Of a stretch of 64,000 nt of DNA, positions 5,411 to 25,719 are shown piece after piece. The notes beneath the pieces were generated by a model. The model made no database searches. It saw only the letters and a list, made by a program, of their open reading frames with translations, and was not told where the DNA came from. Position 1 is the first letter of the stretch; every line of letters begins with the position of its first letter. The DNA is from Escherichia coli (lineage in GTDB: Bacteria; Pseudomonadota; Gammaproteobacteria; Enterobacterales; Enterobacteriaceae): assembly GCF_029227855.1 (NCBI RefSeq), contig NZ_CP074356.1; one strand, given 5' to 3'. A program made the position numbers and the translations under genes.

Positions 5411-5415
5411 GAGAA

Positions 5416-5446: not shown

Positions 5447-5462
5447 TTAATCATAATTATAT

Positions 5463-5771: not shown

Positions 5772-5781
5772 AAAAAACCTC

Positions 5782-6783
5782 CTATAACATTATTCCGCTG
5801 GCAATAAGTAATTTTGCCAGCCCCTCAGACGCCTTTAACCCACTAATGACCTGTGCGCGTAATATTTCATTTAATCTTTTTTGTTCAGCTGCCGTGCGTG
5901 TTTTATTAACGTATAAGCTTTTCAGATAATCACCCTTATCTATAAAGGCATTTAAAGCCTCAATCGCAGGCATGGCAGGTGCCGATGCCTGTAGTCTGGT
6001 TTCATTCACATTGATTACTGAACTTAGAAACTCCTTCCTGTTTTTCAGAGTGTTAAACTCTGTATTCTTAGAGTTTTTAGATGCCGTATTATAATAAAAC
6101 ATATTATCATGCACATTCGCAAAGGTATAATTTTCAATCTTATTGCTTTTTGTATAAATATCATTGCGCAAAACTGCCATGTTCTTTATAAGTCTTACCC
6201 AGTTTTCATCTACCGTTTTGCCTATTTTTCCAGAATTGACTTTAATTATATATAACTCATTGAAATAATTTACCAAATCTTTAACCGCTGCTGCAGATTG
6301 AGCTAAATCTTTGCTATGTGAAACACCAAGTAGTGTTTGTGCGTTGTTTGCGTGATCCAGAGCCTGTTTAAGTAATGCCACTTGCTGACTTTCCGTAGTT
6401 GCCATATCCTTTGTCAGAAGTTCCACATAAGCGCTCATGCTATTAATGACTTCCATTGAAGCCAGTAATTTTTCTTTCTCGAAAGGGACTAATTGTACTT
6501 GTTTTGTATTTGGCCCTGAACGCTGGCATAATTTTCCGCCATTCCCATCACCGCCTATATCAATGGTATAATCAGGTCGCAGGGCACAATCCGGATTAGT
6601 CGCGTAGAAATTAACAAGGAAGTTTTCACGAGAAGCATAGTATTGTTTAAAGAAACTTGCATTCGCCGCTACTGCTTTGTTACCCGCAGTAATAACAGTT
6701 TCAGCTTGTTCGTTTTTCAATGCTTCAGTTGCACAACCTGAAAGCATTAACAGCGATAGAAATATTCCACTATATCTAATCAT
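5782..6783 (-). CDS. hypothetical lipoprotein (333 aa), first gene of low-GC islet; predicted outer-membrane sorted
   Basis: N-terminus MIRYSGIFLSLLMLSGC: basic n-region, hydrophobic core, lipobox L-S-G-C; residue after Cys is Ala (not Asp). SD GAGGTGGG upstream of ATG at 6783. Mature part is Asn/Lys-rich with two further Cys. GC about 28-37 percent in sampled 60 bp stretches versus about 50 percent in flanks. Confidence 0.7.
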   Translation of the reverse strand: MIRYSGIFLSLLMLSGCATEALKNEQAETVITAGNKAVAANASFFKQYYASRENFLVNFYATNPDCALRPDYTIDIGGDGNGGKLCQRSGPNTKQVQLVPFEKEKLLASMEVINSMSAYVELLTKDMATTESQQVALLKQALDHANNAQTLLGVSHSKDLAQSAAAVKDLVNYFNELYIIKVNSGKIGKTVDENWVRLIKNMAVLRNDIYTKSNKIENYTFANVHDNMFYYNTASKNSKNTEFNTLKNRKEFLSSVINVNETRLQASAPAMPAIEALNAFIDKGDYLKSLYVNKTRTAAEQKRLNEILRAQVISGLKASEGLAKLLIASGIML

Positions 6784-6914
6784 AACCCACCTCTTGACGT
6801 TGAATTTATCTCAGATAATTAAATAGTAATGTGGCTATTTCCGGGTATTATTCATAAGCAAGTATGAAATTAAATTAAAATACTGCGACTATTTATCATG
6901 CTTCAAATGAAGAA

Positions 6915-6940
6915 AAGGCCCCGCAGGGCCTTTATTTTAT
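6915..6940. terminator. bidirectional hairpin terminator downstream of rluB
   Basis: GGCCCCGCAGGGCC stem-loop flanked by A-run and T-run just after the rluB stop (minus strand); also bounds the islet promoter region. Confidence 0.6.
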
Positions 6941-6952
6941 ACTTATCTTAAA

Positions 6953-7828
6953 TTAACCGTTATTATTACGTCCGCCAGAACGGCGACCACCGCTCACCTG
7001 GCTATGACGTTTCACCGCACGACGAATCTGATTCGCCTTCATACGACGACGGTCTTTTTCTACGGCAACTTTAGAGCTGGTTTCTGGTGGCAGTTCCACC
7101 AGTTCACGCAGATAGTTAGTCTGAGCGAGGTCCAGCTCCGTCCAGCCACCGCGTGGCAGACCTTTTGGCAGTGGGATATCACCGTAACGCACACGGATCA
7201 GGCGACTTACCTGCACACCAACCGCTTCCCAAAGACGACGAACCTCACGGTTACGGCCTTCGGTCAGAGTAACGTTGTACCACTGGTTGATCCCTTCGCC
7301 GCCGCTGAACTTGATGGTTTTAAAGGCTGCCGGACCATCTTCCAGCTGCACGCCACGACTCAAATCACGCAGTTTCGCGTCGTCAACCTGACCAAATACA
7401 CGCACGGCATATTCACGTTCAACTTCACGGCTAGGATGCATTAAACGATTTGCCAGTTCACCGTCGGTGGTGAAGAGCAACAGACCACAGGTGTTAACGT
7501 CCAGACGACCTACGGCAATCCAGCGTGCGCCACGCAGCTTTGGCAGACGGTCAAACACCGTTGGACGCCCTTCCGGATCGTTACGGGTACACAACTCACC
7601 TTCCGGTTTGTAATAGGCCAGAACGCGACAAATTTGTTCAGCGGACTCACGTACCGAAATCAGGTGACCATCGATACGGATTTTCAATCCAGGGGTAATT
7701 TCAACACGATCGCCGAGTTTAGCAATTTTGCCATCAACACTCACACGACCGGCTTCAATAATAGATTCGATTTCACGGCGAGAACCGTGGCCGGCACGCG
7801 CCAGCACTTTCTGTAGCTTTTCGCTCAT
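6953..7828 (-). CDS. rluB: 23S rRNA pseudouridine(2605) synthase
   Basis: 291 aa; S4 domain N-terminus, RsuA-family catalytic core ([17 protein letters not shown]), Arg/Gly-rich basic C-tail. Confidence 0.9.
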
Positions 7829-7879
7829 AGAGCTTCCTTTTGGTGTCGCCTTCCCAGGCGTCTGATATGCTTTTGTGCA

Positions 7880-7911
7880 ACAGTGAGTCAGAACTTACAT
7901 CTGACTCACTG
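7880..7911. promoter_or_regulatory. perfect 12 bp inverted repeat in rluB upstream/leader region
   Basis: CAGTGAGTCAGA-ACTTACAT-TCTGACTCACTG at 7880-7911, about 55-85 bp upstream of the rluB start codon on its strand. Confidence 0.35.
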
Positions 7912-8038
7912 ATAGTAAAGTCTGTTTGAACTCTTCAGGCCTTAAGTAAACGACTCGACGTTTATCGGCCTGGCTTTGAGGCGCAACATACTACACTATC
8001 TTTATGGTTAAAGCTTGTTTCGATTAACATCAGCTTAA

Positions 8039-9934
8039 TTACCAGCCACCACCGCCTCCGCCACCCGCCCCGCCGCCAGCACCACCACCGGAATAACTTC
8101 GCCCCAACAAACTGGTATTGGCCCCCAGGCTCAGGTGCGTCTGTAATGAGAATAAAACGCCACTACGGGCAATTTCCGGGGCGCGAACAGCCGCTGTGAG
8201 TGATGGGGTGATACGTGCTGCCCATTCTCTGCCAAGGTTTGCCGAGACCGCCCAACCTAACAACGCGTAATCCAGTTTCCGTGTTTCCCCTTTCCGCCGC
8301 CGCCCACTGTGTGTTGCCGCCTCTTTACGCGCAAGATAGTTAACGATAGCTTCACCGTGGGCATAACGTTGCTGCCCAGTTTGGGTAAACTTTGGCAGAA
8401 AAATATACCCTATGCCAGTGAGATAACCGGTCAGGAAAACAGCGCTAAAATAACCCGCTGGCATATACCAGTAAAAGAATACATCTCCGACATTGATATA
8501 GAGAGAATAGAAGGCCACGCCTGAACAAATCAGTGGTAAAAACAAAGTGATGATTACACGATTAACGCAAGGCTTGTCATCATCGCGGGCAAATAAAAGC
8601 TCTAGGGAACAAAATAAAAAAGGAAGAAGCCAGCAGATCATAATAAACATATCGCCTACCAGACTCATTCCTGCCCAGCCTACGGGACTCAGGTTACCGT
8701 AGAGAATGACCGCCAATATTGCCATTCCGCCCCATTGCAAAAACGCATCAGGTCGGTAAAACGAAGACTTTTTACGCGGCAGATAAAATTTCTGCATCCG
8801 TAAAAATGCCTTGCGTAAGACTCTGTTGCGTCTCCCCGTAAGAACGACCTTATCGCCTTTACGAAATAACGCTTCCAGTAATAACTGCTCTGCGGGCAGT
8901 AATACCGCATTATTTCTGGTCGCGCCTTCATTAACACGAATCAGGATTTGCTGGTTCTTGTCATACTGATCTTTCAGATGAATTTTGCCTTTCACAATCA
9001 GATTTACGATATCGGCACAAAAACCTTTATCGTCGTAAACCAGTTTCGCATCGAGACGTAACATGCCGGGCGTGTAATCTGGCGGAATGACATCGGTTTC
9101 AATCACATCTACCGGCGTAAATTGTGGCCTGCGCTTCCAGAGATATAACCATCCACACGCCAGGAACAGACACGGAAACCAAATTAACAACGATGACGTA
9201 GAGGGTAAAAGAAGATGGCTGTAAATATTCGTCGTTTGTGGTGCCGGGGCATTACCAAGTAAAGCGTGAGGCCAGCGGTAGAGGACCGTGAAGTCTTCAC
9301 GATAAAACGGATCGCGGGATTCAATTCTTCCGTCCTCAAGGATGCGGCCATTTCGATATGTGTCGCCCTCTTCTCCAGTAAAGAGATCAATTTCGCTAAA
9401 TGGATTACCCGCAATATCAGGCAACTGGAGAGAAAATCGGGTCTTATAGATTTCAAACGGCCACTTGTTACCGGTCACGTTCCAGATTAACAGATCTGAA
9501 TCTCCCTCACGCAGGAAAGCATTTTTAACCTGATAATGAATTTGATAATGATAGTCGCCTTGAGGCAAGAAACGTTGTTTATCGCCCACGACAATACTCA
9601 TTAACCCGATATGCCAGTCAAGATGCCAGGGTTCAGGAATACCATCACGGGTGACGCCAACAATATGATAGTTCAGTAGTGCAGCGTCCCCATTAGGCTG
9701 CATCCATAGTCGTGGTAAATCACGATAAAATCCGTGCTTAATCTGCTGATTTCGCGCCTGAAAATGAATATTTTCTTTGATGTCGAGCACCCCATCCGGT
9801 TGCAGAGTGGCTTCAACATCAAAGAGCGAGATCCCTTCTTCATAAGAAGGGATCTCCGTGTTTTCTGCATAACTTAGAGATGCTACAAACAGCCCTGCTA
9901 TCAACAGCAAAATGCAGCGAAACTTCCCTGCCAT
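8039..9934 (-). CDS. yciQ: DUF2207-type membrane protein YciQ
   Basis: 631 aa; signal peptide, several TM helices, glycine-only C-terminal tail (GGGAGGGAGGGGGGGW). Confidence 0.85.
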   Translation of the reverse strand: MAGKFRCILLLIAGLFVASLSYAENTEIPSYEEGISLFDVEATLQPDGVLDIKENIHFQARNQQIKHGFYRDLPRLWMQPNGDAALLNYHIVGVTRDGIPEPWHLDWHIGLMSIVVGDKQRFLPQGDYHYQIHYQVKNAFLREGDSDLLIWNVTGNKWPFEIYKTRFSLQLPDIAGNPFSEIDLFTGEEGDTYRNGRILEDGRIESRDPFYREDFTVLYRWPHALLGNAPAPQTTNIYSHLLLPSTSSLLIWFPCLFLACGWLYLWKRRPQFTPVDVIETDVIPPDYTPGMLRLDAKLVYDDKGFCADIVNLIVKGKIHLKDQYDKNQQILIRVNEGATRNNAVLLPAEQLLLEALFRKGDKVVLTGRRNRVLRKAFLRMQKFYLPRKKSSFYRPDAFLQWGGMAILAVILYGNLSPVGWAGMSLVGDMFIMICWLLPFLFCSLELLFARDDDKPCVNRVIITLFLPLICSGVAFYSLYINVGDVFFYWYMPAGYFSAVFLTGYLTGIGYIFLPKFTQTGQQRYAHGEAIVNYLARKEAATHSGRRRKGETRKLDYALLGWAVSANLGREWAARITPSLTAAVRAPEIARSGVLFSLQTHLSLGANTSLLGRSYSGGGAGGGAGGGGGGGW

Positions 9935-9961
9935 AGTCTTCCATCCGTGGAACGCAATTTG

Positions 9962-10582
9962 TTATAAGAAAGGCTTCACATCACCTACGCCTTCACGCAC
10001 CACGACCGGCGTATCATCGGTAAGATCAATAACCGTTGTTGGTTTCTGTCCGAGATAGCCGCCGTGGATAATCAAATCCACCTGTTTTTCCAGACGGTCT
10101 TTAATTTCTTCGGGATCGGATTCGGTAAATTCGCTGCCTGGCAGCATTAGCGAAGTGGAAAGCATCGGTTCGCCCAATGCTTCAAGCAACGCCTGCGCAA
10201 TCGGGTTAGAAGGCACACGCATACCGATGGTTTTGCGTTTTTCCTGCAACAGACGGCGTGGCACCTCCTTCGTCCCTTTCAGGATGAAGGTGTAGTTGCC
10301 CGGCGTGTTGTTTTTCATCAAACGAAACGCAACGTTATCCACGAATGAATAGGTCGAGAGCTCAGAAAGATCGCGACACATCAGGGTAAAGTTGTGACCG
10401 TCCGGCAGCTGGCGAATTCGACAAATACGCTCCATGGCGTTTTTATCTTCAATTTTACAGCCGAGCGCATAGCCGGAATCGGTTGGATAAACAATCACCC
10501 CGCCTTTACGCACGATCTCCACCGCCTGGTTGATCAGTCGTTGCTGCGGGTTATCAGGATGAATATAAAAAAACTGGCTCAT
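9962..10582 (-). CDS. yciO: L-threonylcarbamoyladenylate synthase-like protein YciO (YrdC/Sua5 fold)
   Basis: Start refined to internal Met (MSQFFYIHPDNPQQRL...) giving 206 aa; the ORF-track 218 aa version would overlap yciV by 40 bp. Confidence 0.85.
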   Translation of the reverse strand: MSQFFYIHPDNPQQRLINQAVEIVRKGGVIVYPTDSGYALGCKIEDKNAMERICRIRQLPDGHNFTLMCRDLSELSTYSFVDNVAFRLMKNNTPGNYTFILKGTKEVPRRLLQEKRKTIGMRVPSNPIAQALLEALGEPMLSTSLMLPGSEFTESDPEEIKDRLEKQVDLIIHGGYLGQKPTTVIDLTDDTPVVVREGVGDVKPFL

Positions 10583-11460
10583 AATTCCCTCTCTGTGGTG
10601 TTCTGCGGCTGTTCCCATAGCTGCCAGACGCCTTCAACGCCTGCAGGCAGCCAGAGTTTACGACCCAGTTCAATCCACGGGCACGGCTGATGAAAATCAG
10701 ATCCTTGTGATGCCCATAAATGATGCTGACGCGCAAGTGTCGCCAGCTGGGTGCGTTCATTGGGCGATTGCTGGCACTGCGCGACTTCCATCGCGTCGCC
10801 GTGGTGTTCAGCAAAATGCGCAACCAATCTTTTCAGCCATTTAGCACTAAGATTGTACCGCCCAGGATGAGCTAGCACCGCCTTACCGCCAGAATGATGA
10901 ATGACATCAATAGCTTGTTCTATTGTACACCACTGTGGCGGAACGTATCCGGTTTTCCCGCGCGCCAGATATTTTTTAAAGACATCCGCCATTGAACTGG
11001 CTTTGCCGCACTCCACAAGGAAACGAGCAAAATGACCGCGCGTCACCGCACCGCCCTGCGCCAGTCGTTGCGCGCCTTCCAGCGCACCTGGTATCTGCGC
11101 TTTTTCAAGTCTTTCGGCAATCAGCTGCGCCCGCTGATTGCGCCGTTCTGTCTGCTGCGCGAGGAACTCACACATTAGCGGATGAGTAATATCAATATTC
11201 AGCCCGACAATGTGAATTTCATGATTTTCCCAGACCGTGGAAATTTCCACGCCGGGAATAAGATTCAGCGCCAGTCCCGAACGTGAAATTTCCTCTCTTG
11301 CTGGTGAGATTGCAGCTGTGGTGTCATGGTCGGTGATCGCCAGGGTGCCGACGCGCATCTCGACTGCACGGTGCACCAATGCTTCTGGCGTCAGGCAGCC
11401 ATCGGAAGCTGTGGTATGGCTGTGCAGGTCGTAAATCACTGCGTAATTCGTGTCGCTCAA
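10579..11460 (-). CDS. yciV: PHP-domain phosphoesterase (RNase AM)
   Basis: 293 aa; PHP metal-binding start YDLHSHTTASDG; stop overlaps yciO start by 4 nt. Confidence 0.85.
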   Translation of the reverse strand: MSDTNYAVIYDLHSHTTASDGCLTPEALVHRAVEMRVGTLAITDHDTTAAISPAREEISRSGLALNLIPGVEISTVWENHEIHIVGLNIDITHPLMCEFLAQQTERRNQRAQLIAERLEKAQIPGALEGAQRLAQGGAVTRGHFARFLVECGKASSMADVFKKYLARGKTGYVPPQWCTIEQAIDVIHHSGGKAVLAHPGRYNLSAKWLKRLVAHFAEHHGDAMEVAQCQQSPNERTQLATLARQHHLWASQGSDFHQPCPWIELGRKLWLPAGVEGVWQLWEQPQNTTEREL

Positions 11461-11535
11461 GGCGCACTCCCGTTCTGGATAATGTTTTTTGCGCCGACAT
11501 CATAACGGTTCTGGCAAATATTCTGAAATGAGCTG

Positions 11536-11570
11536 TTGACAATTAATCATCGAACTAGTTAACTAGTACG
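11536..11570 (+). promoter_or_regulatory. trp promoter with TrpR operator
   Basis: TTGACA (11536-11541), 17 bp spacer, TTAACT (11559-11564); operator palindrome CGAACTAGTTAACTAGTACG overlaps the -10. Confidence 0.9.
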
Positions 11571-11597
11571 CAAGTTCACGTAAAAAGGGTATCGACA

Positions 11598-11642
11598 ATG
11601 AAAGCAATTTTCGTACTGAAAGGTTGGTGGCGCACTTCCTGA
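11598..11642 (+). CDS. trpL: trp operon leader peptide (14 aa)
   Basis: atgaaagcaattttcgtactgaaaggttggtggcgcacttcctga = [14 protein letters not shown] with tandem Trp codons; too short for ORF track. Confidence 0.92.
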
Positions 11643-11683
11643 AACGGGCAGTGTATTCACCATGCGTAAAGCAATCAGATACC

Positions 11684-11712
11684 CAGCCCGCCTAATGAGC
11701 GGGCTTTTTTTT
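11684..11712 (+). terminator. trp attenuator (leader terminator)
   Basis: CAGCCCGCCTAATGAGCGGGCT hairpin followed by TTTTTTTT, about 25 bp upstream of trpE. Confidence 0.9.
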
Positions 11713-11733
11713 GAACAAAATTAGAGAATAACA

Positions 11734-13296
11734 ATGCAAACACAAAAACCGACTCTCGAACTGCTAACCTGCGAAGGCGCTTATCGCGACAACCCGACTG
11801 CGCTTTTTCACCAGTTGTGTGGGCATCGTCCAGCAACGCTGCTGCTGGAATCCGCAGATATCGACAGCAAAGATGATTTAAAAAGTCTGCTGCTGATAGA
11901 CAGTGCGCTGCGCATTACAGCATTAGGTGACACTGTCACAATTCAGGCACTTTCCGGCAATGGCGAAGCCCTGCTGGCACTACTGGATAACGCCCTGCCT
12001 GCGGGTGTGGAAAGTGAACAATCACCAAACTGCCGTGTGCTGCGCTTCCCCCCTGTCAGTCCACTGCTGGATGAAGACGCCCGCTTATGCTCCCTTTCGG
12101 TTTTTGACGCTTTCCGCTTATTGCAGAATCTGTTGAATGTACCGAGGGAAGAGCGAGAAGCAATGTTCTTCGGCGGCCTGTTCTCTTATGACCTTGTGGC
12201 GGGATTTGAAGATTTACCACAACTGGCAGCGGAAAATAACTGTCCTGATTTCTGTTTTTATCTCGCTGAAACGCTGATGGTGATTGACCATCAGAAAAAA
12301 AGCACCCGCATTCAGGCCAGTCTTTTTGCTCCGAATGAAGAAGAAAAACAACGTCTCACTGCTCGCCTGAACGATCTTCGCCAGCAACTGACTGAAACCG
12401 CGCCACCGCTGCCGGTGGTTTCCGTGCCGCATATGCGTTGTGAATGTAACCAGAGCGATGAAGAGTTCGGTGGCGTAGTGCGTTTGTTGCAAAAAGCGAT
12501 TCGCGCCGGAGAAATTTTCCAGGTCGTACCATCTCGCCGTTTCTCTCTGCCCTGCCCGTCACCGCTGGCGGCCTATTACGTGCTGAAAAAGAGTAATCCC
12601 AGCCCGTACATGTTTTTTATGCAGGATAATGATTTCACCCTGTTTGGCGCGTCGCCGGAAAGTTCGCTCAAGTATGACGCCACCAGCCGCCAGATTGAGA
12701 TCTACCCCATTGCCGGAACACGTCCACGCGGTCGTCGTGCCGATGGTTCACTGGACAGAGACCTCGACAGCCGCATCGAACTGGAAATGCGTACCGATCA
12801 TAAAGAGCTTTCTGAACATCTGATGCTGGTGGATCTCGCCCGTAATGATCTGGCACGCATTTGCACCCCCGGTAGTCGCTACGTCGCCGATCTCACCAAA
12901 GTTGACCGTTATTCTTATGTGATGCACCTCGTCTCCCGCGTGGTCGGTGAGCTGCGCCACGATCTCGACGCCCTGCACGCTTACCGCGCCTGTATGAATA
13001 TGGGCACGTTAAGCGGCGCGCCGAAAGTGCGCGCCATGCAGTTAATTGCCGAGGCGGAAGGTCGTCGCCGCGGCAGCTACGGCGGCGCAGTAGGTTATTT
13101 CACCGCGCATGGCGATCTCGACACCTGCATTGTGATCCGCTCGGCGCTGGTGGAAAACGGTATCGCCACCGTGCAAGCCGGTGCTGGCGTGGTACTTGAT
13201 TCTGTTCCGCAGTCGGAAGCCGACGAAACCCGTAATAAAGCCCGCGCTGTACTGCGCGCTATTGCCACCGCGCATCATGCACAGGAGACGTTCTGA
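11734..13296 (+). CDS. trpE: anthranilate synthase component I
   Basis: 520 aa [30 protein letters not shown]...; stop overlaps trpD start (TGATG). Confidence 0.97.
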
Positions 13297-14891
13297 TGGC
13301 TGACATTCTGCTGCTCGATAATATCGACTCTTTTACTTACAACCTGGCAGATCAGTTGCGCAGCAATGGTCATAACGTGGTGATTTACCGCAACCATATT
13401 CCGGCGCAGACCTTAATTGAACGCCTGGCGACAATGAGCAATCCGGTGCTGATGCTTTCTCCTGGCCCCGGTGTGCCAAGCGAAGCCGGTTGTATGCCAG
13501 AACTCCTCACCCGCCTGCGCGGCAAGCTGCCAATTATTGGCATTTGCCTCGGTCATCAGGCGATTGTCGAAGCTTATGGGGGGTATGTCGGTCAGGCGGG
13601 CGAAATTCTTCACGGTAAAGCGTCGAGTATTGAACATGACGGTCAGGCGATGTTTGCCGGATTAACAAACCCATTGCCAGTGGCGCGTTATCACTCGCTG
13701 GTTGGCAGTAACATTCCGGCCGGTTTAACCATCAACGCCCATTTTAATGGCATGGTGATGGCGGTGCGTCACGATGCAGATCGCGTTTGTGGATTCCAGT
13801 TCCATCCGGAATCCATTCTTACTACCCAGGGTGCTCGCCTGCTGGAACAAACGCTGGCCTGGGCGCAGCAGAAACTGGAACCGACCAACACGCTGCAACC
13901 GATTCTGGAAAAACTGTATCAGGCGCAGACCCTTAGCCAGCAGGAAAGTCACCAGCTGTTTTCAGCGGTGGTACGTGGCGAACTGAAACCGGAACAACTG
14001 GCGGCGGCGCTGGTGAGCATGAAAATTCGCGGCGAGCACCCGAACGAGATCGCCGGAGCAGCAACCGCGCTACTGGAAAATGCCGCGCCGTTCCCGCGCC
14101 CGGATTATCTGTTTGCTGATATCGTCGGTACTGGCGGTGACGGCAGTAACAGCATCAATATTTCTACCGCCAGTGCGTTTGTCGCCGCGGCCTGTGGGCT
14201 GAAAGTGGCGAAACACGGCAACCGTAGCGTCTCCAGTAAATCCGGCTCGTCGGATCTGCTGGCGGCGTTCGGTATTAATCTTGATATGAACGCCGATAAA
14301 TCGCGCCAGGCGCTGGATGAGTTAGGCGTCTGTTTCCTCTTTGCGCCGAAATATCACACCGGATTCCGCCACGCGATGCCGGTTCGCCAACAACTGAAAA
14401 CCCGCACCCTGTTCAATGTGCTGGGGCCATTGATTAACCCGGCGCATCCGCCGCTGGCGCTAATTGGTGTTTATAGTCCGGAACTGGTGCTGCCGATTGC
14501 CGAAACCTTGCGCGTGCTGGGGTATCAACGCGCTGCGGTAGTGCACAGCGGCGGGATGGATGAAGTTTCATTACACGCGCCGACAATCGTTGCCGAACTG
14601 CATGACGGTGAAATTAAGAGCTATCAGCTAACTGCAGAAGATTTTGGCCTGACACCCTACCACCAGGAGCAACTGGCAGGCGGAACACCGGAAGAAAACC
14701 GTGACATTTTAACACGCTTGTTACAAGGTAAAGGCGACGCCGCCCATGAAGCAGCCGTCGCGGCGAACGTCGCCATGTTAATGCGCCTGCATGGCCATGA
14801 AGATCTGCAAGCCAATGCGCAAACCGTTCTTGAGGTACTGCGCAGTGGTTCCGCTTACGACAGAGTCACCGCACTGGCGGCACGAGGGTAA
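13296..14891 (+). CDS. trpD: bifunctional anthranilate synthase component II / anthranilate phosphoribosyltransferase
   Basis: 531 aa; N-terminal glutamine amidotransferase (GICLGHQ), C-terminal PRTase. Confidence 0.97.
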
Positions 14892-16253
14892 ATGATGCAA
14901 ACCGTTTTAGCGAAAATCGTCGCAGACAAGGCGATTTGGGTAGAAACCCGCAAACAGCAGCAACCGCTGGCCAGTTTTCAGAATGAGGTTCAGCCGAGCA
15001 CGCGACATTTTTATGATGCACTTCAGGGCGCACGCACGGCGTTTATTCTGGAGTGTAAAAAAGCGTCGCCGTCAAAAGGCGTGATCCGTGATGATTTCGA
15101 TCCGGCACGCATTGCCGCCATTTATAAACATTACGCTTCGGCAATTTCGGTGCTGACTGATGAGAAATATTTTCAGGGGAGCTTTGATTTCCTCCCCATC
15201 GTCAGCCAAATCGCCCCGCAGCCGATTTTATGTAAAGACTTCATTATCGATCCTTACCAGATCTATCTGGCGCGCTATTACCAGGCCGATGCCTGCTTAT
15301 TAATGCTTTCAGTACTGGATGACGAACAATATCGCCAGCTTGCTGCCGTCGCCCACAGTCTGGAGATGGGTGTGCTGACCGAAGTCAGTAATGAAGAGGA
15401 ACTGGAGCGTGCCATTGCATTGGGGGCAAAGGTCGTTGGCATCAACAACCGCGATCTGCGTGATTTGTCGATTGATCTCAACCGTACCCGCGAGCTTGCG
15501 CCGAAACTGGGGCACAACGTGACGGTAATCAGCGAATCCGGCATCAATACTTACGCTCAGGTGCGCGAGTTAAGCCACTTCGCTAACGGTTTTCTGATTG
15601 GTTCGGCGTTGATGGCCCATGACGATTTGAACGCCGCCGTGCGCCGGGTGTTGCTTGGTGAGAATAAAGTGTGTGGCCTGACGCGTGGGCAAGATGCTAA
15701 AGCAGCTTATGACGCGGGCGCGATTTACGGTGGGTTGATTTTTGTTACAACGTCACCGCGTTGCGTCAGCGTTGAACAGGCGCAGGAAGTGATGGCTGCG
15801 GCACCGTTGCAATACGTTGGCGTATTCCGCAATCACGATATTGCCGATGTGGTGGACAAAGCTAACGCGTTATCGCTGGCAGCAGTGCAACTGCATGGTA
15901 ATGAAGATCAGCAATATATCGACGCACTGCGTGACGTGCTGCCCGCAAACGTTGCCATCTGGAAAGCATTGAGCGTCGGTGAAACTCTTCCCGCACGCGA
16001 TTTTCAGCACGTCGATAAATATGTTTTCGACAACGGCCAGGGTGGTAGCGGGCAACGTTTCGACTGGTCACTGTTAAACGGTCAATCGCTTGGCAACGTT
16101 CTGCTGGCGGGGGGCTTAGGCGCAGATAACTGCGTGGAAGCGGCACAAACCGGCTGCGCCGGACTTGATTTTAATTCTGCTGTAGAGTCACAACCGGGTA
16201 TAAAAGACGCACATCTTTTGGCCTCGGTTTTCCAGACGCTGCGCGCATATTAA
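14892..16253 (+). CDS. trpC: bifunctional indole-3-glycerol-phosphate synthase / phosphoribosylanthranilate isomerase
   Basis: 453 aa [16 protein letters not shown]...; begins immediately after the trpD stop. Confidence 0.97.
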
Positions 16254-16264
16254 GGAAAGGAACA

Positions 16265-17458
16265 ATGACAACATTACTTAACCCCTATTTTGGTGAGTTT
16301 GGCGGCATGTACGTGCCACAAATCCTGATGCCTGCTCTGCGCCAGCTGGAAGAAGCTTTTGTCAGCGCGCAAAAAGATCCTGAATTTCAGGCCCAGTTCA
16401 ACGACCTGTTGAAAAACTATGCCGGGCGTCCAACCGCACTGACCAAATGCCAGAACATTACGGCTGGGACGAACACTACGCTGTATCTTAAGCGCGAAGA
16501 TTTACTGCACGGCGGCGCGCATAAAACTAACCAGGTGCTCGGTCAGGCTTTACTGGCGAAGCGGATGGGTAAAACCGAAATCATCGCCGAAACCGGTGCC
16601 GGTCAGCATGGCGTGGCGTCGGCCCTTGCCAGTGCCCTGCTCGGCCTGAAATGCCGTATTTATATGGGTGCCAAAGACGTTGAACGCCAGTCGCCAAACG
16701 TTTTTCGTATGCGCTTAATGGGTGCGGAAGTGATCCCGGTACATAGCGGTTCCGCGACGCTGAAAGATGCCTGTAACGAGGCGCTACGCGACTGGTCCGG
16801 CAGTTATGAAACCGCGCACTATATGCTGGGCACCGCAGCTGGCCCGCATCCTTACCCGACCATTGTGCGTGAGTTTCAGCGAATGATTGGCGAAGAAACG
16901 AAAGCGCAGATTCTGGAAAGAGAAGGTCGCCTGCCGGATGCGGTTATCGCTTGTGTTGGCGGCGGTTCAAATGCCATCGGCATGTTTGCTGATTTCATCA
17001 ACGAAACCGACGTCGGCCTGATTGGTGTCGAACCAGGCGGTCACGGTATCGAAACTGGCGAGCACGGCGCACCGTTAAAACACGGTCGCGTGGGCATCTA
17101 TTTCGGTATGAAAGCGCCGATGATGCAAACCGAAGACGGGCAGATTGAAGAATCTTACTCCATCTCCGCCGGACTGGATTTCCCGTCTGTCGGCCCACAA
17201 CACGCGTATCTTAACAGCACTGGACGCGCTGATTACGTGTCAATTACCGATGATGAAGCACTGGAAGCCTTCAAAACGCTGTGCCTGTACGAAGGGATCA
17301 TCCCGGCGCTGGAATCCTCCCACGCCCTGGCCCATGCGCTGAAAATGATGCGCGAAAACCCGGAAAAAGAGCAGCTACTGGTGGTTAACCTTTCCGGTCG
17401 CGGCGATAAAGACATCTTCACCGTTCACGATATTTTGAAAGCACGAGGGGAAATCTGA
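16265..17458 (+). CDS. trpB: tryptophan synthase beta subunit
   Basis: 397 aa; PLP-lysine region [11 protein letters not shown]; stop overlaps trpA start. Confidence 0.97.
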
Positions 17459-18264
17459 TGCAACGCTACGAATCTCTGTTTGCCCAGTTGAAGGAGCGCA
17501 AAGAAGGCGCATTCGTTCCTTTCGTCACCCTCGGTGATCCGGGCATTGAGCAGTCGCTGAAAATTATCGACACGCTAATTGAAGCCGGTGCTGACGCGCT
17601 GGAGTTAGGTATCCCCTTCTCCGACCCACTGGCGGATGGCCCGACGATTCAAAACGCCACACTGCGTGCCTTTGCGGCAGGTGTGACCCCGGCACAGTGC
17701 TTTGAGATGCTGGCACTGATTCGCCAGAAGCACCCGACCATTCCCATCGGCCTTTTGATGTATGCCAACCTGGTGTTTAACAAAGGCATTGATGAGTTTT
17801 ATGCCCAGTGCGAGAAAGTCGGCGTCGATTCGGTGCTGGTTGCCGATGTGCCAGTGGAAGAGTCCGCTCCCTTCCGCCAGGCCGCGTTGCGTCATAATGT
17901 CGCACCTATCTTTATTTGCCCGCCGAATGCCGACGATGATTTGCTGCGCCAGATAGCCTCCTACGGTCGTGGATACACCTATTTATTGTCACGTGCGGGC
18001 GTGACCGGCGCAGAAAACCGCGCCGCGTTACCCCTCAATCATCTGGTCACGAAGCTGAAAGAGTACAATGCTGCGCCTCCATTGCAGGGCTTTGGTATTT
18101 CCGCCCCGGATCAGGTAAAAGCAGCGATTGATGCAGGAGCTGCGGGCGCGATTTCTGGTTCGGCCATTGTTAAAATCATCGAGCAACATATTAATGAGCC
18201 AGAGAAAATGCTGGCGGCACTGAAAGCTTTTGTACAACCGATGAAAGCGGCGACGCGCAGTTAA
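17458..18264 (+). CDS. trpA: tryptophan synthase alpha subunit
   Basis: 268 aa [28 protein letters not shown]... Confidence 0.97.
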
Positions 18265-18270
18265 TCCCAC

Positions 18271-18297
18271 AGCCGCCAGTACCGCTGGCGGCATTTT
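18271..18297 (+). terminator. trp operon terminator (trp t)
   Basis: AGCCGCCAGTACCGCTGGCGGC hairpin plus TTTT directly after the trpA stop. Confidence 0.85.
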
Positions 18298-18644
18298 AAC
18301 TTTCTTTAACGAAGCCGGAAAAATCCTAAATTCATTTTATATTTATCTTTTTACCGTTTCGCTTACCCCTGTCGAACGTCAACTTACGTTATTTTTCCGC
18401 CCAACAGTAATATAATCAAACAAATTAATCCCGCAACATAACACCAGTAAAATAAATAATTTTCTCTAAGTCACTTATTCCTCAGGCAATTGTTAATATA
18501 TCCAGAACGTTCCTCATAATATATTTTCCCACTTTCTTCTCGTTACGCTTAATTTGACTAATTCTCATTAGCGACTAATTTTAATGAGTGTCGACACACA
18601 ACACTCATATTAATCAAACAATGCAACGCAACGGGAGAAATAAC

Positions 18645-18824
18645 ATGGCCGAACATCGTGGTGGTTCAGGAAATTTCGCCGAAGACCGTGAGAAGGCATC
18701 CGACGCAGGCCGTAAAGGCGGTCAGCATAGCGGCGGTAATTTTAAAAATGATCCGCAACGCGCATCTGAAGCGGGTAAAAAAGGCGGTCAACAAAGCGGT
18801 GGTAATAAATCAGGCAAATCCTGA
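18645..18824 (+). CDS. yciG: KGG-repeat general stress protein YciG (59 aa)
   Basis: Start refined to internal ATG with SD GGGAGA: MAEHRGGSGNFAEDREKASDAGRKGGQHSGGNFKNDPQRASEAGKKGGQQSGGNKSGKS. Confidence 0.8.
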   Translation: MAEHRGGSGNFAEDREKASDAGRKGGQHSGGNFKNDPQRASEAGKKGGQQSGGNKSGKS

Positions 18825-18909
18825 TTCACCGTTAATTATTAATATCAGCTGATAAAGATAATTTCATCTGCGGGCCGTATGGCTCGCAGTGATTCCACTG
18901 GAGAAAAAT

Positions 18910-19410
18910 ATGAATATGAAGACCATTGAAGATGTATTTATTCACCTGCTTTCAGATACCTACAGCGCAGAAAAACAATTAACCCGTGCACTGGCAAAAC
19001 TCGCTAGAGCAACATCAAACGAAAAATTAAGTCAGGCTTTTCATGCGCACCTCGAGGAAACCCATGGACAGATTGAACGAATTGATCAAGTTGTGGAATC
19101 TGAATCGAACCTGAAAATTAAGCGCATGAAATGTGTGGCAATGGAAGGTCTCATTGAAGAAGCTAATGAGGTTATCGAAAGCACCGAGAAAAACGAAGTG
19201 CGTGATGCCGCACTGATTGCCGCAGCGCAGAAAGTCGAGCACTATGAGATCGCCAGTTACGGGACATTAGCGACGCTGGCTGAACAATTAGGTTACCGTA
19301 AAGCAGCGAAGCTTCTGAAAGAAACTCTTGAAGAAGAAAAGGCCACCGACATCAAACTGACTGATCTGGCACTTAATAACGTAAATAAGAAAGCCGAAAA
19401 TAAAGCCTGA
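18910..19410 (+). CDS. yciF: DUF892 ferritin-like stress protein YciF
   Basis: Start refined to MNMKTIEDVFIHLLSDTYSAEKQ (166 aa). Confidence 0.85.
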   Translation: MNMKTIEDVFIHLLSDTYSAEKQLTRALAKLARATSNEKLSQAFHAHLEETHGQIERIDQVVESESNLKIKRMKCVAMEGLIEEANEVIESTEKNEVRDAALIAAAQKVEHYEIASYGTLATLAEQLGYRKAAKLLKETLEEEKATDIKLTDLALNNVNKKAENKA

Positions 19411-19455
19411 AATATGAATTTTCACTTTTAGTCATTTTATAAAGAGGACATTTTC

Positions 19456-19962
19456 ATGAATCGTATTGAACATTATCATGACTGGTTACGTGACGCCCAC
19501 GCAATGGAAAAGCAAGCCGAATCTATGCTTGAATCCATGGCCAGTCGTATAGATAATTATCCTGAACTACGCGCTCGTATTGAACAACATCTTAGTGAAA
19601 CCAAAAACCAGATTATTCAACTGGAAACTATTCTTGATCGTAATGACATTTCACGTTCAGTCATTAAAGATTCCATGAGTAAAATGGCTGCGCTTGGGCA
19701 GTCAATCGGTGGTATATTCCCTTCTGATGAAATAGTCAAAGGCTCTATTAGCGGATATGTCTTCGAGCAATTTGAAATCGCCTGTTACACCTCACTATTA
19801 GCAGCAGCAAAAAATGCCGGTGATACAGCTTCAATTCCAACCATCGAAGCGATTTTAAATGAGGAAAAGCAAATGGCCGACTGGCTGATTCAGCATATTC
19901 CGCAAACAACTGAGAAATTTTTAATTCGCTCTGAAACTGATGGCGTAGAAGCGAAGAAATAA
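19456..19962 (+). CDS. yciE: DUF892 ferritin-like stress protein YciE
   Basis: 168 aa, paralog-like to yciF; last gene of yciGFE cluster. Confidence 0.85.
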   Translation: MNRIEHYHDWLRDAHAMEKQAESMLESMASRIDNYPELRARIEQHLSETKNQIIQLETILDRNDISRSVIKDSMSKMAALGQSIGGIFPSDEIVKGSISGYVFEQFEIACYTSLLAAAKNAGDTASIPTIEAILNEEKQMADWLIQHIPQTTEKFLIRSETDGVEAKK

Positions 19963-19986
19963 TACCCTTTATGCCATGTCCTTATT

Positions 19987-20013
19987 GACCCCGTATATTA
20001 CGGGGTCGTTTTT
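19987..20013 (+). terminator. yciGFE terminator
   Basis: GACCCCG-TATATTA-CGGGGTC hairpin followed by GTTTTT. Confidence 0.7.
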
Positions 20014-20021
20014 GTGCAGAA

Positions 20022-20660
20022 TTAAAAACGATATCCTGCTGAGAACATAAACACCCACGGATCGAGGCGTACGCTATCGTGTTGCTGTGCACCGCCCAGC
20101 TTATAATTGGCGGTGGTATCAATATCCATGTACCACACTGACATGTTAACCAACCAGTCACGGTTAATCAGATAATCAACCCCCACCTGCCCGGCAGCTC
20201 CCCAGGAATCTTTCAGACTGAGATCGGAAAGCCCCGCCTCTTTGCCATGATCGTTAAATCCATTATCAAAGAAGGTGGTGTAGTTAATACCTGCCCCAAC
20301 GTAAGGACGGAATTTGCTGCTGGCATCACCAAAATACCACTGCGCCATCAGTGTTGGCGGCAGATGATGAACGGTTGCAATATCGCCGGTCGCCCGGGTG
20401 CCGATTTTATGGCGGAACGGCGTCGCTGCCAGCAATTCCACACCAATGTTATCGGTCGCCATATAAGTAAACGTCAGGCCCAGTTGCGTGTTATTGGTCA
20501 CGCTGAATCCACCCAGACTTCCTAACGTACCACCAGCACCTTCTGTTGGACGTACGGTTGCAGAACCTGCACGCATAAAAAATTCGCCTGCTTCATGCGC
20601 AAAGGCACTGCCAGAGAGAAGAGTTGTTACTGCCAAAGCCGCCACTGTTAACTTTTTCAT
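20022..20660 (-). CDS. ompW: outer membrane protein W
   Basis: 212 aa; signal peptide MKKLTVAALAVTTLLSGSAFA; beta-barrel ending in Phe (..AGYRF). Confidence 0.92.
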   Translation of the reverse strand: MKKLTVAALAVTTLLSGSAFAHEAGEFFMRAGSATVRPTEGAGGTLGSLGGFSVTNNTQLGLTFTYMATDNIGVELLAATPFRHKIGTRATGDIATVHHLPPTLMAQWYFGDASSKFRPYVGAGINYTTFFDNGFNDHGKEAGLSDLSLKDSWGAAGQVGVDYLINRDWLVNMSVWYMDIDTTANYKLGGAQQHDSVRLDPWVFMFSAGYRF

Positions 20661-20808
20661 ATCCGCTCCGTCGTTATGGTTATAAAAACGTGACGAATAT
20701 ACCTACATTGGAGTAACAAATGATCCTACATAGATCACATTACATATGATAATTCACCCTTTATTGATCTGGATTAATTTAGAAGTTGCATTGAGAATCC
20801 TGGTTAAC

Positions 20809-20822
20809 GTGATTTAAATCAA
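20809..20822. promoter_or_regulatory. candidate FNR/CRP-type site upstream of ompW
   Basis: GTGATttaaATCAA matches TTGAT-N4-ATCAA at 9 of 10 positions; about 150 bp upstream of the ompW start; ompW is known to be FNR-regulated. Confidence 0.4.
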
Positions 20823-21016
20823 TTTTTAAATATTTTCGCTACGCAAATATTAACTCGTTCGCCACTTGCCGCGGTTTGCCCACGCCTGAAGGCCAGCAAT
20901 TACCTCCGCTTTACAAAGATATGCTTTTCCATACAAGACCTGATGCTGCCACCCGAGGCTTAACCAGGGTACAATTGCCCGCTAATTAACACCTGCATAA
21001 AACTCAAGGAGAGTGC

Positions 21017-21760
21017 ATGTCTATCACGGCGCAGTCCGTATACCGTGACACCGGAAATTTCTTCCGTAATCAATTTATGACCATTCTGTTGGTATCGTTG
21101 CTATGTGCGTTTATCACAGTGGTGTTAGGGCATGTTTTCTCACCCAGTGATGCACAGCTTGCGCAGCTCAATGACGGCGTGCCCGTTAGCGGCAGTAGTG
21201 GGTTGTTCGACCTGGTTCAGAATATGTCACCGGAACAGCAACAAATTTTGCTGCAGGCTTCAGCGGCGTCCACTTTTTCAGGATTAATCGGTAACGCCAT
21301 TCTCGCCGGAGGCGTAATATTAATTATCCAGCTGGTGTCTGCGGGTCAGAGAGTCAGTGCGCTGCGAGGTATTGGTGCCTGTGCGCCGATATTGCCAAAG
21401 TTATTTATTCTGATTTTTCTGACTACCCTTTTAGTACAGATTGGCATCATGCTGGTGGTCGTTCCGGGAATTATCATGGCTATTTTACTGGCCCTGGCAC
21501 CGGTGATGTTGGTACAGGACAAAATGGGCGTTTTTGCCTCGATGCGTAGCAGTATGCGGCTGACTTGGGCGAATATGCGTCTGGTGGCACCCGCAGTACT
21601 GAGCTGGTTGCTGGCAAAAACACTGTTGCTGCTTTTTGCCTCTTCTTTTGCCGCATTAACCCCGGAAATTGGTGCCGTACTGGCGAACACCTTGAGCAAC
21701 CTGATTTCAGCCGTACTGCTCATCTATCTGTTCCGCCTGTATATGTTGATTCGCCAATAA
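21017..21760 (+). CDS. yciC: UPF0259 inner membrane protein YciC
   Basis: 247 aa, multiple TM helices. Confidence 0.85.
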
Positions 21761-21789
21761 CCTTAAGCATTTGATTACGGAATCGTAAA

Positions 21790-22329
21790 ATGAAGCAGTT
21801 TCTTGATTTTTTACCGCTGGTTGTCTTTTTCGCGTTTTACAAGATTTATGACATCTATGCGGCTACTGCGGCGCTGATCGTCGCCACGGCGATTGTGCTT
21901 ATATATAGCTGGGTTCGCTTTCGTAAGGTTGAGAAGATGGCCCTGATCACTTTTGTTCTGGTGGTCGTCTTCGGTGGCTTAACCCTGTTCTTCCACAATG
22001 ATGAGTTTATTAAATGGAAGGTTACTGTCATTTATGCCCTGTTTGCAGGTGCCCTGTTAGTCAGCCAATGGGTGATGAAAAAGCCGCTAATTCAGCGGAT
22101 GCTGGGTAAAGAACTCACGCTGCCGCAACCGGTATGGTCGAAGCTGAATCTGGCCTGGGCTGTTTTCTTTATCCTTTGCGGTCTGGCAAACATCTACATC
22201 GCATTCTGGCTGCCGCAAAATATTTGGGTCAACTTTAAAGTCTTTGGCCTGACCGCCCTTACCTTAATCTTCACATTGTTAAGCGGTATCTATATCTACC
22301 GCCACATGCCGCAGGAAGATAAATCCTAA
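21790..22329 (+). CDS. yciB: inner membrane protein YciB (intracellular septation protein)
   Basis: 179 aa polytopic membrane protein [23 protein letters not shown]... Confidence 0.85.
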
Positions 22330-22433
22330 CCAGACTGCCAGTCCTTCGGGGCTGGCGCTGTATCTCCTCTGTTCTCCTCAGGAAAATCATAGTAGCATCG
22401 CGCCTGTGATTTTCCTTTTAAGTCGGTTTTACC

Positions 22434-22832
22434 ATGTCTACAACACATAACGTCCCTCAGGGCGATCTTGTTTTACGTACTTTAGCCATGCCCGCCGATA
22501 CCAATGCCAATGGGGACATCTTTGGTGGTTGGTTAATGTCACAAATGGATATTGGCGGCGCTATTCTGGCGAAAGAAATTGCCCACGGTCGCGTAGTGAC
22601 CGTGCGGGTTGAAGGAATGACTTTCTTACGACCGGTTGCGGTCGGCGATGTGGTGTGCTGCTATGCACGCTGTGTCCAGAAAGGGACGACATCGGTCAGC
22701 ATTAATATTGAAGTGTGGGTGAAAAAAGTCGCGTCTGAACCCATCGGGCAACGCTATAAAGCGACAGAAGCATTATTTAAGTATGTCGCGGTTGATCCTG
22801 AAGGAAAACCTCGCGCCTTACCTGTTGAGTAA
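22434..22832 (+). CDS. yciA: acyl-CoA thioesterase (hotdog fold)
   Basis: 132 aa. Confidence 0.85.
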   Translation: MSTTHNVPQGDLVLRTLAMPADTNANGDIFGGWLMSQMDIGGAILAKEIAHGRVVTVRVEGMTFLRPVAVGDVVCCYARCVQKGTTSVSINIEVWVKKVASEPIGQRYKATEALFKYVAVDPEGKPRALPVE

Positions 22833-22837
22833 TAATC

Positions 22838-22862
22838 AAAAGCCTCCGGTCGGAGGCTTTTG
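22838..22862. terminator. bidirectional terminator shared by yciA and tonB
   Basis: AAAAGCCTCCGGTCGGAGGCTTTT: symmetric hairpin with A-run on one side and T-run on the other, between convergent stops. Confidence 0.85.
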
Positions 22863-22871
22863 ACTTTCTGC

Positions 22872-23591
22872 TTACTGAATTTCGGTGGTGCCGTTAATTT
22901 TAAACAGGATATTCACCACAATCCCACTGCCTGGCTTACCCGGCTCATAACGCCATCTGCGCATCGCATTTTTCACCTCACGCTCAAACATGTTCGCAGG
23001 CTTGGCTGAGAGGATTTGTACGTTATCCACGCGACCATCCGGCGTAACGTCAAATTTAACTTTAACCTGCCCTTCAATGCGCAATGCCTGTGCTCGTGCC
23101 GGATACTGCGGCTGATTACGGCTTAATGCGCGTGGTCCTGAAGCCACACTGGTAACCGGCTTGCTGGTTGCAGCCGTTGCTGTACTTGATGTCGGGCGTG
23201 CCGGTGCCGTATTTTCAAACGGTGATGCCGGACGCGACTCTACGGGTTTGACATCGCGTTTTGGCTGTTCCTGTACCTTTTTCACCGGCTTCGGTTTTGG
23301 CTTAGGTTTCGGCTTCGGCTTTTCAATGACCACCGGTGCTTCTTTTGGCGGTTCGGGGATCGGCTCAGGTTCCGGTTCTGGCTCTACCACCGGCTCCGGT
23401 GGCGGCTGAACGGCTTGTGGCGGTTCGAGATCCGCAGGCGCAACCATCGTGACAGAAATTGGCTGCGCAGGCGCAGGTAGTTCAATAACCTGATGTACCG
23501 AGGTATAGAGCAGACCCGCCACAACAGCACCATGAATGCAGACCGAAAGTAACGTCGGCCAGGGGAAGCGGCGAGGTAAATCAAGGGTCAT
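22872..23591 (-). CDS. tonB: TonB energy transducer
   Basis: Start refined to [29 protein letters not shown] (239 aa); (EP)n and (KP)n rigid spacer repeats. Confidence 0.95.
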
Positions 23592-23814
23592 TGAAGTCAT
23601 AATCATTTCAGTAGAAAAACCAGGCCTCGATTTTAAATGCAAATAGCAATCATATTCAATAAGGCAAGACGATCAGGATCAGTGAAAATGTCATTTTTGG
23701 CGTAATTGACCTTACTTTTTAAATGGTCTTAACAAAGACATCATCTTTCCGTTGCAGATCTTCGCCCTTTCAAATAACGTACTTTACAACTTTCCCGAAC
23801 AAGGAGTTGTGCCC

Positions 23815-24111
23815 GTGTTGTATGTTATTTACGCTCAAGACAAAGCTGATAGCCTCGAAAAACGCCTTTCCGTTCGTCCGGCACATTTAGCACGTTTACA
23901 GTTACTGCATGATGAAGGTCGTTTGTTGACAGCTGGTCCAATGCCAGCGGTAGACAGTAACGATCCAGGGGCTGCGGGATTTACTGGCTCAACCGTTATT
24001 GCTGAATTTGAATCGCTGGAAGCAGCTCAGGCCTGGGCCGATGCTGACCCGTACGTAGCGGCAGGAGTCTATGAACACGTTTCAGTGAAACCATTTAAGA
24101 AAGTGTTCTGA
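23815..24111 (+). CDS. yciI: YciI-like protein (Dabb fold)
   Basis: GTG start at 23815 gives 98 aa (M)[27 protein letters not shown]...; the ORF-track ATG extension has no SD. Confidence 0.8.
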
Positions 24112-25665: not shown

Positions 25666-25719
25666 ACTTTAAAGACGGAAGAGTAAACTTATTGGGCACC
25701 GCAATGGTGCCCAGTACAT

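Follow-up and report, generated by a model that had tools for sequence, protein, structure and literature searches.

The window analysed here is a 64,000-nt stretch of one strand of Escherichia coli DNA (contig NZ_CP074356.1). It carries the trp genes together with a promoter, an operator, a leader with alternative RNA helices and an intrinsic terminator (Table 1). Five structural genes follow trpL on one strand in the order trpE, trpD, trpC, trpB and trpA, as determined from open reading frames and from NCBIfam and Pfam matches. The five NCBIfam models (TIGR00565, NF007073, NF006945, TIGR00263 and TIGR00262) each score above their equivalog cut-offs with essentially full-length matches, and Pfam recovers the expected domain fusions (trpG-D and trpC-F). 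The trpD product combines a glutamine amidotransferase with an anthranilate phosphoribosyltransferase (Pfam GATase, Glycos_trans_3N and Glycos_transf_3), and the trpC product combines indole-3-glycerol-phosphate synthase with phosphoribosylanthranilate isomerase (PRAI). The encoded enzymes would lead from chorismate to tryptophan.

Escherichia coli K-12 MG1655 (b1265–b1260, NC_000913.3 1316416–1323082, minus strand) has the same gene order, gene lengths, fusions, junction architecture, terminator position and flanking genes as the window. All trp genes have their MG1655 lengths, with 0 internal stops and 0 indels. Over the operon interval, 258 of 6762 positions differ (96.2% identity), nearly all of them synonymous, and the structural genes are 95.4–96.7% identical to K-12 at the nucleotide level. 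Such agreement is far beyond chance. In strain JNEC-KY178, whose sequence is identical over this stretch, RefSeq annotates trpL, a Trp leader region, trpE, trpD, trpCF, trpB and trpA at matching coordinates. An earlier note had claimed an intact operon and proposed alignment to K-12 trpLEDCBA as the check; the alignment sustains that claim, with five full-length open reading frames, no gene indels and an identical control region. Judged from its sequence, the locus is almost certainly the chromosomal trpLEDCBA operon of E. coli, apparently intact and functional, and K-12-type two-layer control is to be expected; no sequence feature speaks against this reading. A trp operon with repressor-plus-attenuation control is the standard textbook form in E. 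coli and is already known.

Table 1. Features of the trp locus in window coordinates.
Feature	Position	Strand	Basis and details
trpL-trpE-trpD-trpC-trpB-trpA	11536-18297	+	ORF list, profile matches, alignment to K-12
trp promoter	11536-11564	+	-35 TTGACA 11536-11541, 17-nt spacer, -10 TTAACT 11559-11564; read from sequence
TrpR operator palindrome CGAACTAGTT/AACTAGTACG	11551-11570	.	Inverted repeat, 10-nt arms, no gap
Leader transcript, 162 nt	11572-11733	+	+1 (A at 11572) to base preceding trpE ATG
trpL leader peptide ORF, 14 aa	11598-11642	+	Tandem Trp codons UGG UGG 11625-11630; RefSeq trpL at same position
Rfam RF00513 Trp_leader	11619-11712	+	93.1 bits, gathering score 41, E = 1.6e-19
Segment 1:2 hairpin (pause / anti-antiterminator)	11623-11665	+	Fold of +50..+95 = -17.5 kcal/mol
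Segment 2:3 antiterminator	11645-11690	+	Fold of +70..+125 = -15.6 kcal/mol, segment 4 left out
Segment 3:4 attenuator	11685-11713	+	G+C-rich hairpin 11685-11705, then U8 11706-11713
trpE, anthranilate synthase component I, 520 aa	11734-13296	+	TIGR00565 equivalog 926.7 bits, cut-off 494.65
trpE/trpD TGATG stop/start overlap, -1 spacing	13294-13298	+	Junction sequence TTCTGATGGCT
trpD (trpG-trpD fusion), 531 aa	13296-14891	+	NF007073 equivalog 1238 bits, cut-off 738, positions 1-531 of 531
trpC (trpC-trpF fusion), 453 aa	14892-16253	+	NF006945 equivalog 763 bits, cut-off 380; Pfam IGPS + PRAI
trpB, tryptophan synthase beta, 397 aa	16265-17458	+	TIGR00263 equivalog 624 bits, cut-off 392
trpB/trpA TGATG stop/start overlap	17456-17460	+	Junction sequence ATCTGATGCAA
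trpA, tryptophan synthase alpha, 268 aa	17458-18264	+	TIGR00262 equivalog 375.5 bits, cut-off 102
trp t intrinsic terminator	18272-18297	+	Hairpin 18272-18292, then ATTTT, last T = 18297

Control region, junctions and terminator

The intergenic control region between rnm and trpE (11461–11733) is identical to K-12 MG1655 at 273 of 273 nt (100%), and in a species-wide search 5328 of 5425 matching records shared at least 99% identity with it. It contains the promoter, the TrpR operator, a leader of 14 codons that includes UGG-UGG, and RNA segments 1:2, 2:3 and 3:4. The trp promoter falls inside this identical stretch, its −35 hexamer starting exactly at 11536, and we take its function to be that established for the same sequence in K-12. 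A generic sigma-70 promoter scan of the window missed the trp promoter: its −10 hexamer TTAACT fits just three of six consensus positions, which places it under the scanner threshold. We do not count this miss against the promoter, since the sequence here equals that of the K-12 promoter defined by experiment. The operator palindrome overlaps the −10 hexamer; an inverted-repeat search gives arms that are complementary at 9 of 10 positions (90%), and the sequence is that of K-12. By analogy with K-12, where this very control sequence was studied by experiment, TrpR would be expected to bind here, and the tryptophan-bound repressor would block initiation. TrpR binding in K-12 and the published control mechanism are summarised in PMC13178558. 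Both trpR and tRNA-Trp are located outside the window.

The transcription start in Table 1 was set from K-12 on the assumption that the mRNA likewise begins AAGUUCACG, with the trpL AUG at +27 and the trpE AUG at +163; both offsets agree with the window coordinates. The whole leader folds with a minimum free energy (MFE) of −49.8 kcal/mol (z = −3.9), and the 1:2 hairpin recurs in this structure. Rfam family RF00513 comprises enterobacterial ribosome-dependent attenuators; the window leader matches its full covariance model (positions 1–100 of 100), including both conserved helices, and equals the type sequence of the family without notable difference. All three alternative helices exist in the leader. 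The 2:3 helix pairs ACGGGC with GCCCG, which is the 5' arm of the terminator stem, and this arm is also used by the 3:4 helix; the alternative helices are mutually exclusive. A terminator scan gives seven pairs for the 3:4 hairpin, six of them G-C, with a folding energy of −14.0 kcal/mol.

With ample charged tRNA-Trp, the ribosome would pass both UGG codons, the 3:4 hairpin would form and transcription would stop at the U-run before trpE. A ribosome stalled at the UGG codons would instead leave segment 2 free to pair with segment 3, so that the antiterminator would form and read-through would follow. With all 141 nt present, the equilibrium MFE structure kept the 3:4 terminator even after segment 1 was masked to imitate a ribosome stalled at the two UGG codons; the 2:3 antiterminator appears solely when segment 4 is omitted, as it would be during co-transcriptional folding. 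The switch is thus not captured by simple thermodynamics, and for the role of the antiterminator we rely on the established kinetic, co-transcriptional model. Attenuation kinetics like those of K-12, where experiments were made on the identical control sequence, would be expected. In K-12, repression amounts to roughly 70-fold and attenuation to 8–10-fold.

Two of the gene junctions are TGATG overlaps. At the others, trpD and trpC abut as TAAATG, with the trpC ATG directly after the trpD TAA, and trpC and trpB are separated by 11 nt that bear a Shine-Dalgarno-like AAGGAAAGGA. Translational coupling between trpE and trpD in K-12 was shown by Oppenheim and Yanofsky, according to PMC12548453, which also describes the −1 spacing of TGATG overlaps and the coupling. 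Extrapolated from the K-12 experiments, the overlaps in the window would couple TrpD translation to TrpE and TrpA translation to TrpB, where each pair would make up a stoichiometric enzyme complex.

Transcription would end at the trp t hairpin. This hairpin has nine pairs in the terminator scan, seven of them G-C, and folds at −18.1 kcal/mol (z = −6.1); none of 200 shuffled sequences folds as well. Its one difference from K-12 is a T-to-A change at 18281 in the loop, and 13 positions differ in the 436 nt 3' of trpA. The promoter and operator, the leader peptide with tandem Trp codons, the attenuator hairpin, both TGATG overlaps and the trp t terminator had all been named in the earlier note, and each was located as listed in Table 1. 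The K-12 operon also has a low-level internal promoter, trp-p2, in distal trpD and a Rho-dependent terminator, trp t', beyond trp t. The generic promoter scan returned no + strand match within trpD and is uninformative for such a weak promoter.

Divergence of the structural genes and origin of the allele

The operon occurs across the species: with either 11400–18400 or 11536–18297 as query, at least 80% of its length is covered in 5416 of 5426 complete E. coli genomes. JNEC-KY178 (NZ_AP045174.1) and KE55 (NZ_CP141061.1) are each listed at 100.0% identity over 11400–18400, with KE55 scoring slightly lower (12923 vs 12929 bits). JNEC-KY178, the closest genome, differs from the window at only two positions across 1–20147. 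From the equivalent of 20148 it has an Stx2e prophage in ompW; in the window this site is free of prophage and ompW is intact (212 aa). A prophage next to the operon, which in JNEC-KY178 lies 1.9 kb downstream, was thus rejected for the window, given the intact ompW and divergence exactly at 20148.

The operon may not have been inherited vertically; we lean towards a segment of ~15 kb that a divergent E. coli lineage contributed through homologous recombination. Divergence from K-12 per 500 bp is ~3–6% over ~4500–19500 vs ~1% in most of 1–4500 and 19500–30000. The trp allele is also rare: 14 of 5422 matching records reach at least 99% identity over the operon vs 518 of 6588 over the next 24 kb. 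In an alignment with strain TUM14771, two differences fall in the first ~4.4 kb of the operon and 48 in the remaining ~2.4 kb, mostly in trpB and trpA, which marks a clear mosaic breakpoint. However, the pattern could equally result if the imported DNA had entered K-12 or other reference lineages, and the comparison covers just seven alleles. A recombinant origin concerns where the operon came from and not how it functions, and is compatible with an intact operon. A fuller version of the recombinant origin, to which we give an even chance, is that exchange of the ~4500–19500 tract produced a rare mosaic trp allele in which a cluster of changed residues within the PRAI half of TrpC (325–353 and 379) could slightly alter enzyme properties.

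The five genes have dN/dS values of 0.005–0.13 vs K-12 at dS of 0.13–0.19, which indicates purifying selection on the trp genes. Amino-acid replacements total 31: TrpE has 6 (95.9% nucleotide identity, dN/dS 0.03), TrpD 1, TrpC 18, TrpB 3 and TrpA 3. All active-site residues examined are unchanged, including the PLP lysine motif HKTNQ in TrpB and E49 and D60 in TrpA. TrpC has the highest dN/dS of the five (0.13); its examined catalytic residues are kept, and L379F adjoins the PRAI catalytic Asp. Relaxed constraint was rejected as an explanation of the 18 TrpC differences: TrpC is polymorphic generally (30 positions among just seven strains), and most of the variants are common to other strains (five compared).

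It is very improbable that the operon looks intact and is nonetheless impaired, with a replacement such as TrpC L379F, TrpE D31H or TrpA E2Q inactivating or deregulating an enzyme and leaving the strain leaky or auxotrophic. The 31 differences, and their concentration in TrpC at the highest dN/dS, would fit such impairment, but all five genes have dN/dS values far under 1, every catalytic residue examined is conserved and equivalog scores are well over their cut-offs. Moreover, the TrpC variants, F379 among them, also occur in other natural isolates, and the TrpE and TrpD RefSeq protein accessions are common to several independent isolates. A pseudogene or frameshifted copy is ruled out by K-12 open reading frame lengths, the lack of internal stops and the low dN/dS.

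Genomic context and significance

K-12 gene order is kept on both sides of the operon, with rnm-yciO-yciQ upstream and yciG-yciF-yciE-ompW downstream. The + strand of the window runs in reverse of MG1655 numbering and is colinear with that genome, starting at topA and heading for the ldr/rdl repeats that lie upstream of chaA. The use of the operon as an anchor for the locus and its orientation, suggested in the earlier note, is borne out by this arrangement. The same note's judgement of the operon as textbook and of low novelty also holds. Nothing is added to the understanding of trp regulation, and the value of the operon is that of an anchor.

Clonal-segment mosaicism of the E. coli trp region has reportedly been described since the 1980s in studies by Milkman. 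If the recombinant origin is true, the trp tract in the window would be one more case of this long-known mosaicism. The trp operon places the window on the E. coli chromosome in the K-12 28-minute region. It also provides a yardstick for other features of the window, with an invariant control region beside structural genes that have a dS of ~0.16.

Layout and extent of the trp operon

The earlier note had placed an intact trp operon at 11536-18297, with promoter/operator, 14 aa leader, attenuator hairpin, TGATG overlaps at trpE-trpD and trpB-trpA, and the terminator trp t. All of these elements are present, as is evident from the ORFs, the raw sequence, alignment to Escherichia coli K-12 and the RefSeq annotation of strain JNEC-KY178, in which the same positions carry trpL, a 'Trp leader region', trpE, trpD, trpCF, trpB and trpA. 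The limits are exact, as the -35 hexamer starts at 11536 and trp t ends with its last T at 18297. The control elements occupy 11536-11713, with AAGTTCACG... between the -10 hexamer and trpL, and five long plus-strand ORFs occur within 10500-19500. The trpE/trpD junction reads TTCTGATGGCT, with TGATG at 13294-13298, and the trpB/trpA junction reads ATCTGATGCAA, with TGATG at 17456-17460; trpD and trpC abut, as their junction is TAAATG, and the 11-nt spacer between trpC and trpB contains AAGGAAAGGA. Translational coupling through a -1 overlap was first demonstrated for the trpE/trpD pair (PMC12548453). Downstream of trpA lies GCCGCCAGTACCGCTGGCGGCATTTT; trp t differs from K-12 only by T to A at 18281, in the loop.

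Window features, with K-12 comparison and family assignment of the Trp proteins (cut-offs are those of the NCBIfam equivalogs)
Feature	Position	Strand	Description	nt identity to K-12; aa differences; dN/dS	NCBIfam (bits; cut-off)	Pfam
Islet ORF	5463-5771	-				
Islet ORF	5782-6783	-				
trp promoter -35	11536-11541	+	TTGACA, raw sequence			
Operator palindrome	11551-11570		CGAACTAGTT/AACTAGTACG, overlaps -10 hexamer			
trp promoter -10	11559-11564	+	TTAACT, raw sequence, 17-nt spacer after -35			
trpL	11598-11642	+	short ORF ATGAAAGCAATTTTCGTACTGAAAGGTTGGTGGCGCACTTCCTGA, raw sequence			
Attenuator	11685-11713	+	G+C-rich hairpin and eight T's, raw sequence			
trpE	11734-13296	+	520 aa	95.9%; 6; 0.030	TIGR00565 (926.7; 494.65)	Anth_synt_I_N + Chorismate_bind
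trpD	13296-14891	+	531 aa	96.3%; 1; 0.005	NF007073 (1238; 738)	GATase + Glycos_trans_3N + Glycos_transf_3
trpC	14892-16253	+	453 aa	95.8%; 18; 0.131	NF006945 (763.2; 380)	IGPS + PRAI
trpB	16265-17458	+	397 aa	96.7%; 3; 0.023	TIGR00263 (624.1; 392.45)	PALP
trpA	17458-18264	+	268 aa	95.4%; 3; 0.026	TIGR00262 (375.5; 102.35)	Trp_syntA
trp t hairpin	18272-18292	+	9 pairs, 7 G-C; -18.1 kcal/mol, z = -6.1			
ompW	20022-20660	-	intact, 212 aa			
IS200-type element ORF	40172-40681	-				
IS200-type element ORF	40884-41393	-				

Leader RNA

With +1 placed at the A at 11572, as in K-12, the AUG codons of trpL and trpE fall at +27 and +163, respectively, in agreement with published offsets. Across 9 kb searched with Rfam, Trp_leader (RF00513, gathering score 41) is the sole family at threshold; it matches over its full model length at 11619-11712 (93.1 bits, E = 1.6e-19). 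For the 162-nt leader the fold energy is -49.8 kcal/mol versus -34.6 ± 3.9 for shuffles (z = -3.9), and the minimum free energy structure has the 1:2 and 3:4 hairpins. Folded alone, segment 1:2 (11623-11665) reaches -17.5 kcal/mol and segment 3:4, the attenuator (11685-11705), reaches -14.0 kcal/mol. In segment 2:3, the antiterminator (11645-11690, -15.6 kcal/mol), ACGGGC pairs with GCCCG, a stretch shared with 3:4, where it forms the 5' arm. With segment 1 masked and all 141 nt present, the equilibrium optimum remains 3:4. Folding demonstrates that alternative, mutually exclusive leader helices exist, but not the switch, which is kinetic and co-transcriptional according to the K-12 literature summarised in PMC13178558.

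Conservation and a probable allelic mosaic

Alignment to K-12 trpLEDCBA (NC_000913.3), as the earlier note had suggested, gives equal gene lengths throughout and no internal stops. All five Trp proteins exceed curated NCBIfam equivalog cut-offs over essentially their full length, with the expected Pfam architectures. Presumed catalytic or regulatory residues, of which only the local motifs were verified, are unchanged: TrpE S40 and M293; TrpD C84, H170 and E172; TrpC E54, K56, K115, E164, N185, C261 and D380 (453-aa numbering); TrpB K87 and E109; TrpA E49 and D60. In a seven-strain comparison, TrpC is polymorphic at 30 amino-acid positions, and most variants in the window are shared with other strains.

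trpL is nucleotide-identical to K-12 and the 273-nt rnm-trpE intergenic region (11461-11733) has no differences, whereas synonymous divergence in the structural genes is about 0.16 (dS 0.13-0.19). The contrast is also seen species-wide, with a nearly invariant control region next to well-diverged synonymous sites: identity of 99% or more is found for the control region in 5328 of 5425 matching records (about half of the sampled rows being fully identical), but for the whole operon in only 14 of 5422. Of 5426 complete E. coli genomes, 5416 have a megablast match to at least 80% of window 11400-18400; JNEC-KY178 and KE55 are each listed as 100.0% identical over this interval. The promoter spacer has single-base variants in strains EDL933 and 2013C-3492.

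Most strains, K-12 and O157:H7 among them, share about 96.2% identity with the trp allele of the window, and a minority share 97-98%. Per 500 bp, the sequence diverges from K-12 by about 3-6% over ~4500-19500, an approximately 15-kb tract in which the operon lies, versus about 1% over most of the flanks. Compared with strain TUM14771, the operon has 2 differences in its first ~4.4 kb and 48 in the remaining about 2.4 kb, most of them in trpB and trpA, with a sharp breakpoint near 15.9-16.3 kb in the window. Judged from these alignments, the tract and breakpoint look like a recombination mosaic. The trp region is a long-standing classic example of such recombination-shaped patterns, and its mosaicism is already known rather than a new observation.

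Chromosomal setting

Several other features were observed in the window. A 1.5-kb two-gene islet (5411-6951), absent from K-12, lies between cobO (btuR) and rluB. Its two products, one of 333 aa whose N-terminus (MIRYSGIFLSLLMLSGC) is lipoprotein-like and one of 102 aa, both lack a Pfam match. A query covering the islet with its edges (5380-6980) is matched over at least 80% of its length in 605 of 5426 E. coli genomes. The hns-galU intergenic region (40068-41486), where K-12 has nothing, contains two IS200-type elements in tandem, nearly identical and about 712 bp apart (transposase Y1_Tnp, E = 5e-38). Two MG1655 mobile elements seem to be missing, at 33984-33987 and 38067-38076; K-12-only alignment gaps of roughly 1.2 kb and roughly 1 kb fit IS5U upstream of oppA and ISZ between adhE and tdk, respectively. 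A 43-nt piece that covers the trp promoter on its -35 side (11510-11552) exactly matches a 96-kb plasmid of O157:H7 ATCC 43890, and nine plasmid places match in total. These may be engineered promoters of the tac/trc type, a class built on the trp -35 region. At the right end (62617-63997), blast repeatedly matches ldr/rdl, the type I toxin-antitoxin repeats of K-12.

Up to base 20147, only 2 positions distinguish JNEC-KY178 from the window, and that strain carries an Stx2e-encoding prophage in ompW at the point equivalent to 20148; in the window this site is unoccupied and ordinary chromosome follows ompW. Gene order runs topA, rnm, trp, yciGFE, ompW, tonB, opp, adhE, hns, galU, nar and the ldr/rdl repeats, colinear with MG1655 in reverse orientation, which bears out the anchoring role that the earlier note gave to the operon. 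Its view of a textbook system of low novelty is likewise supported: the operon is intact and already known, and is useful solely as a positional and orientational anchor of the window.
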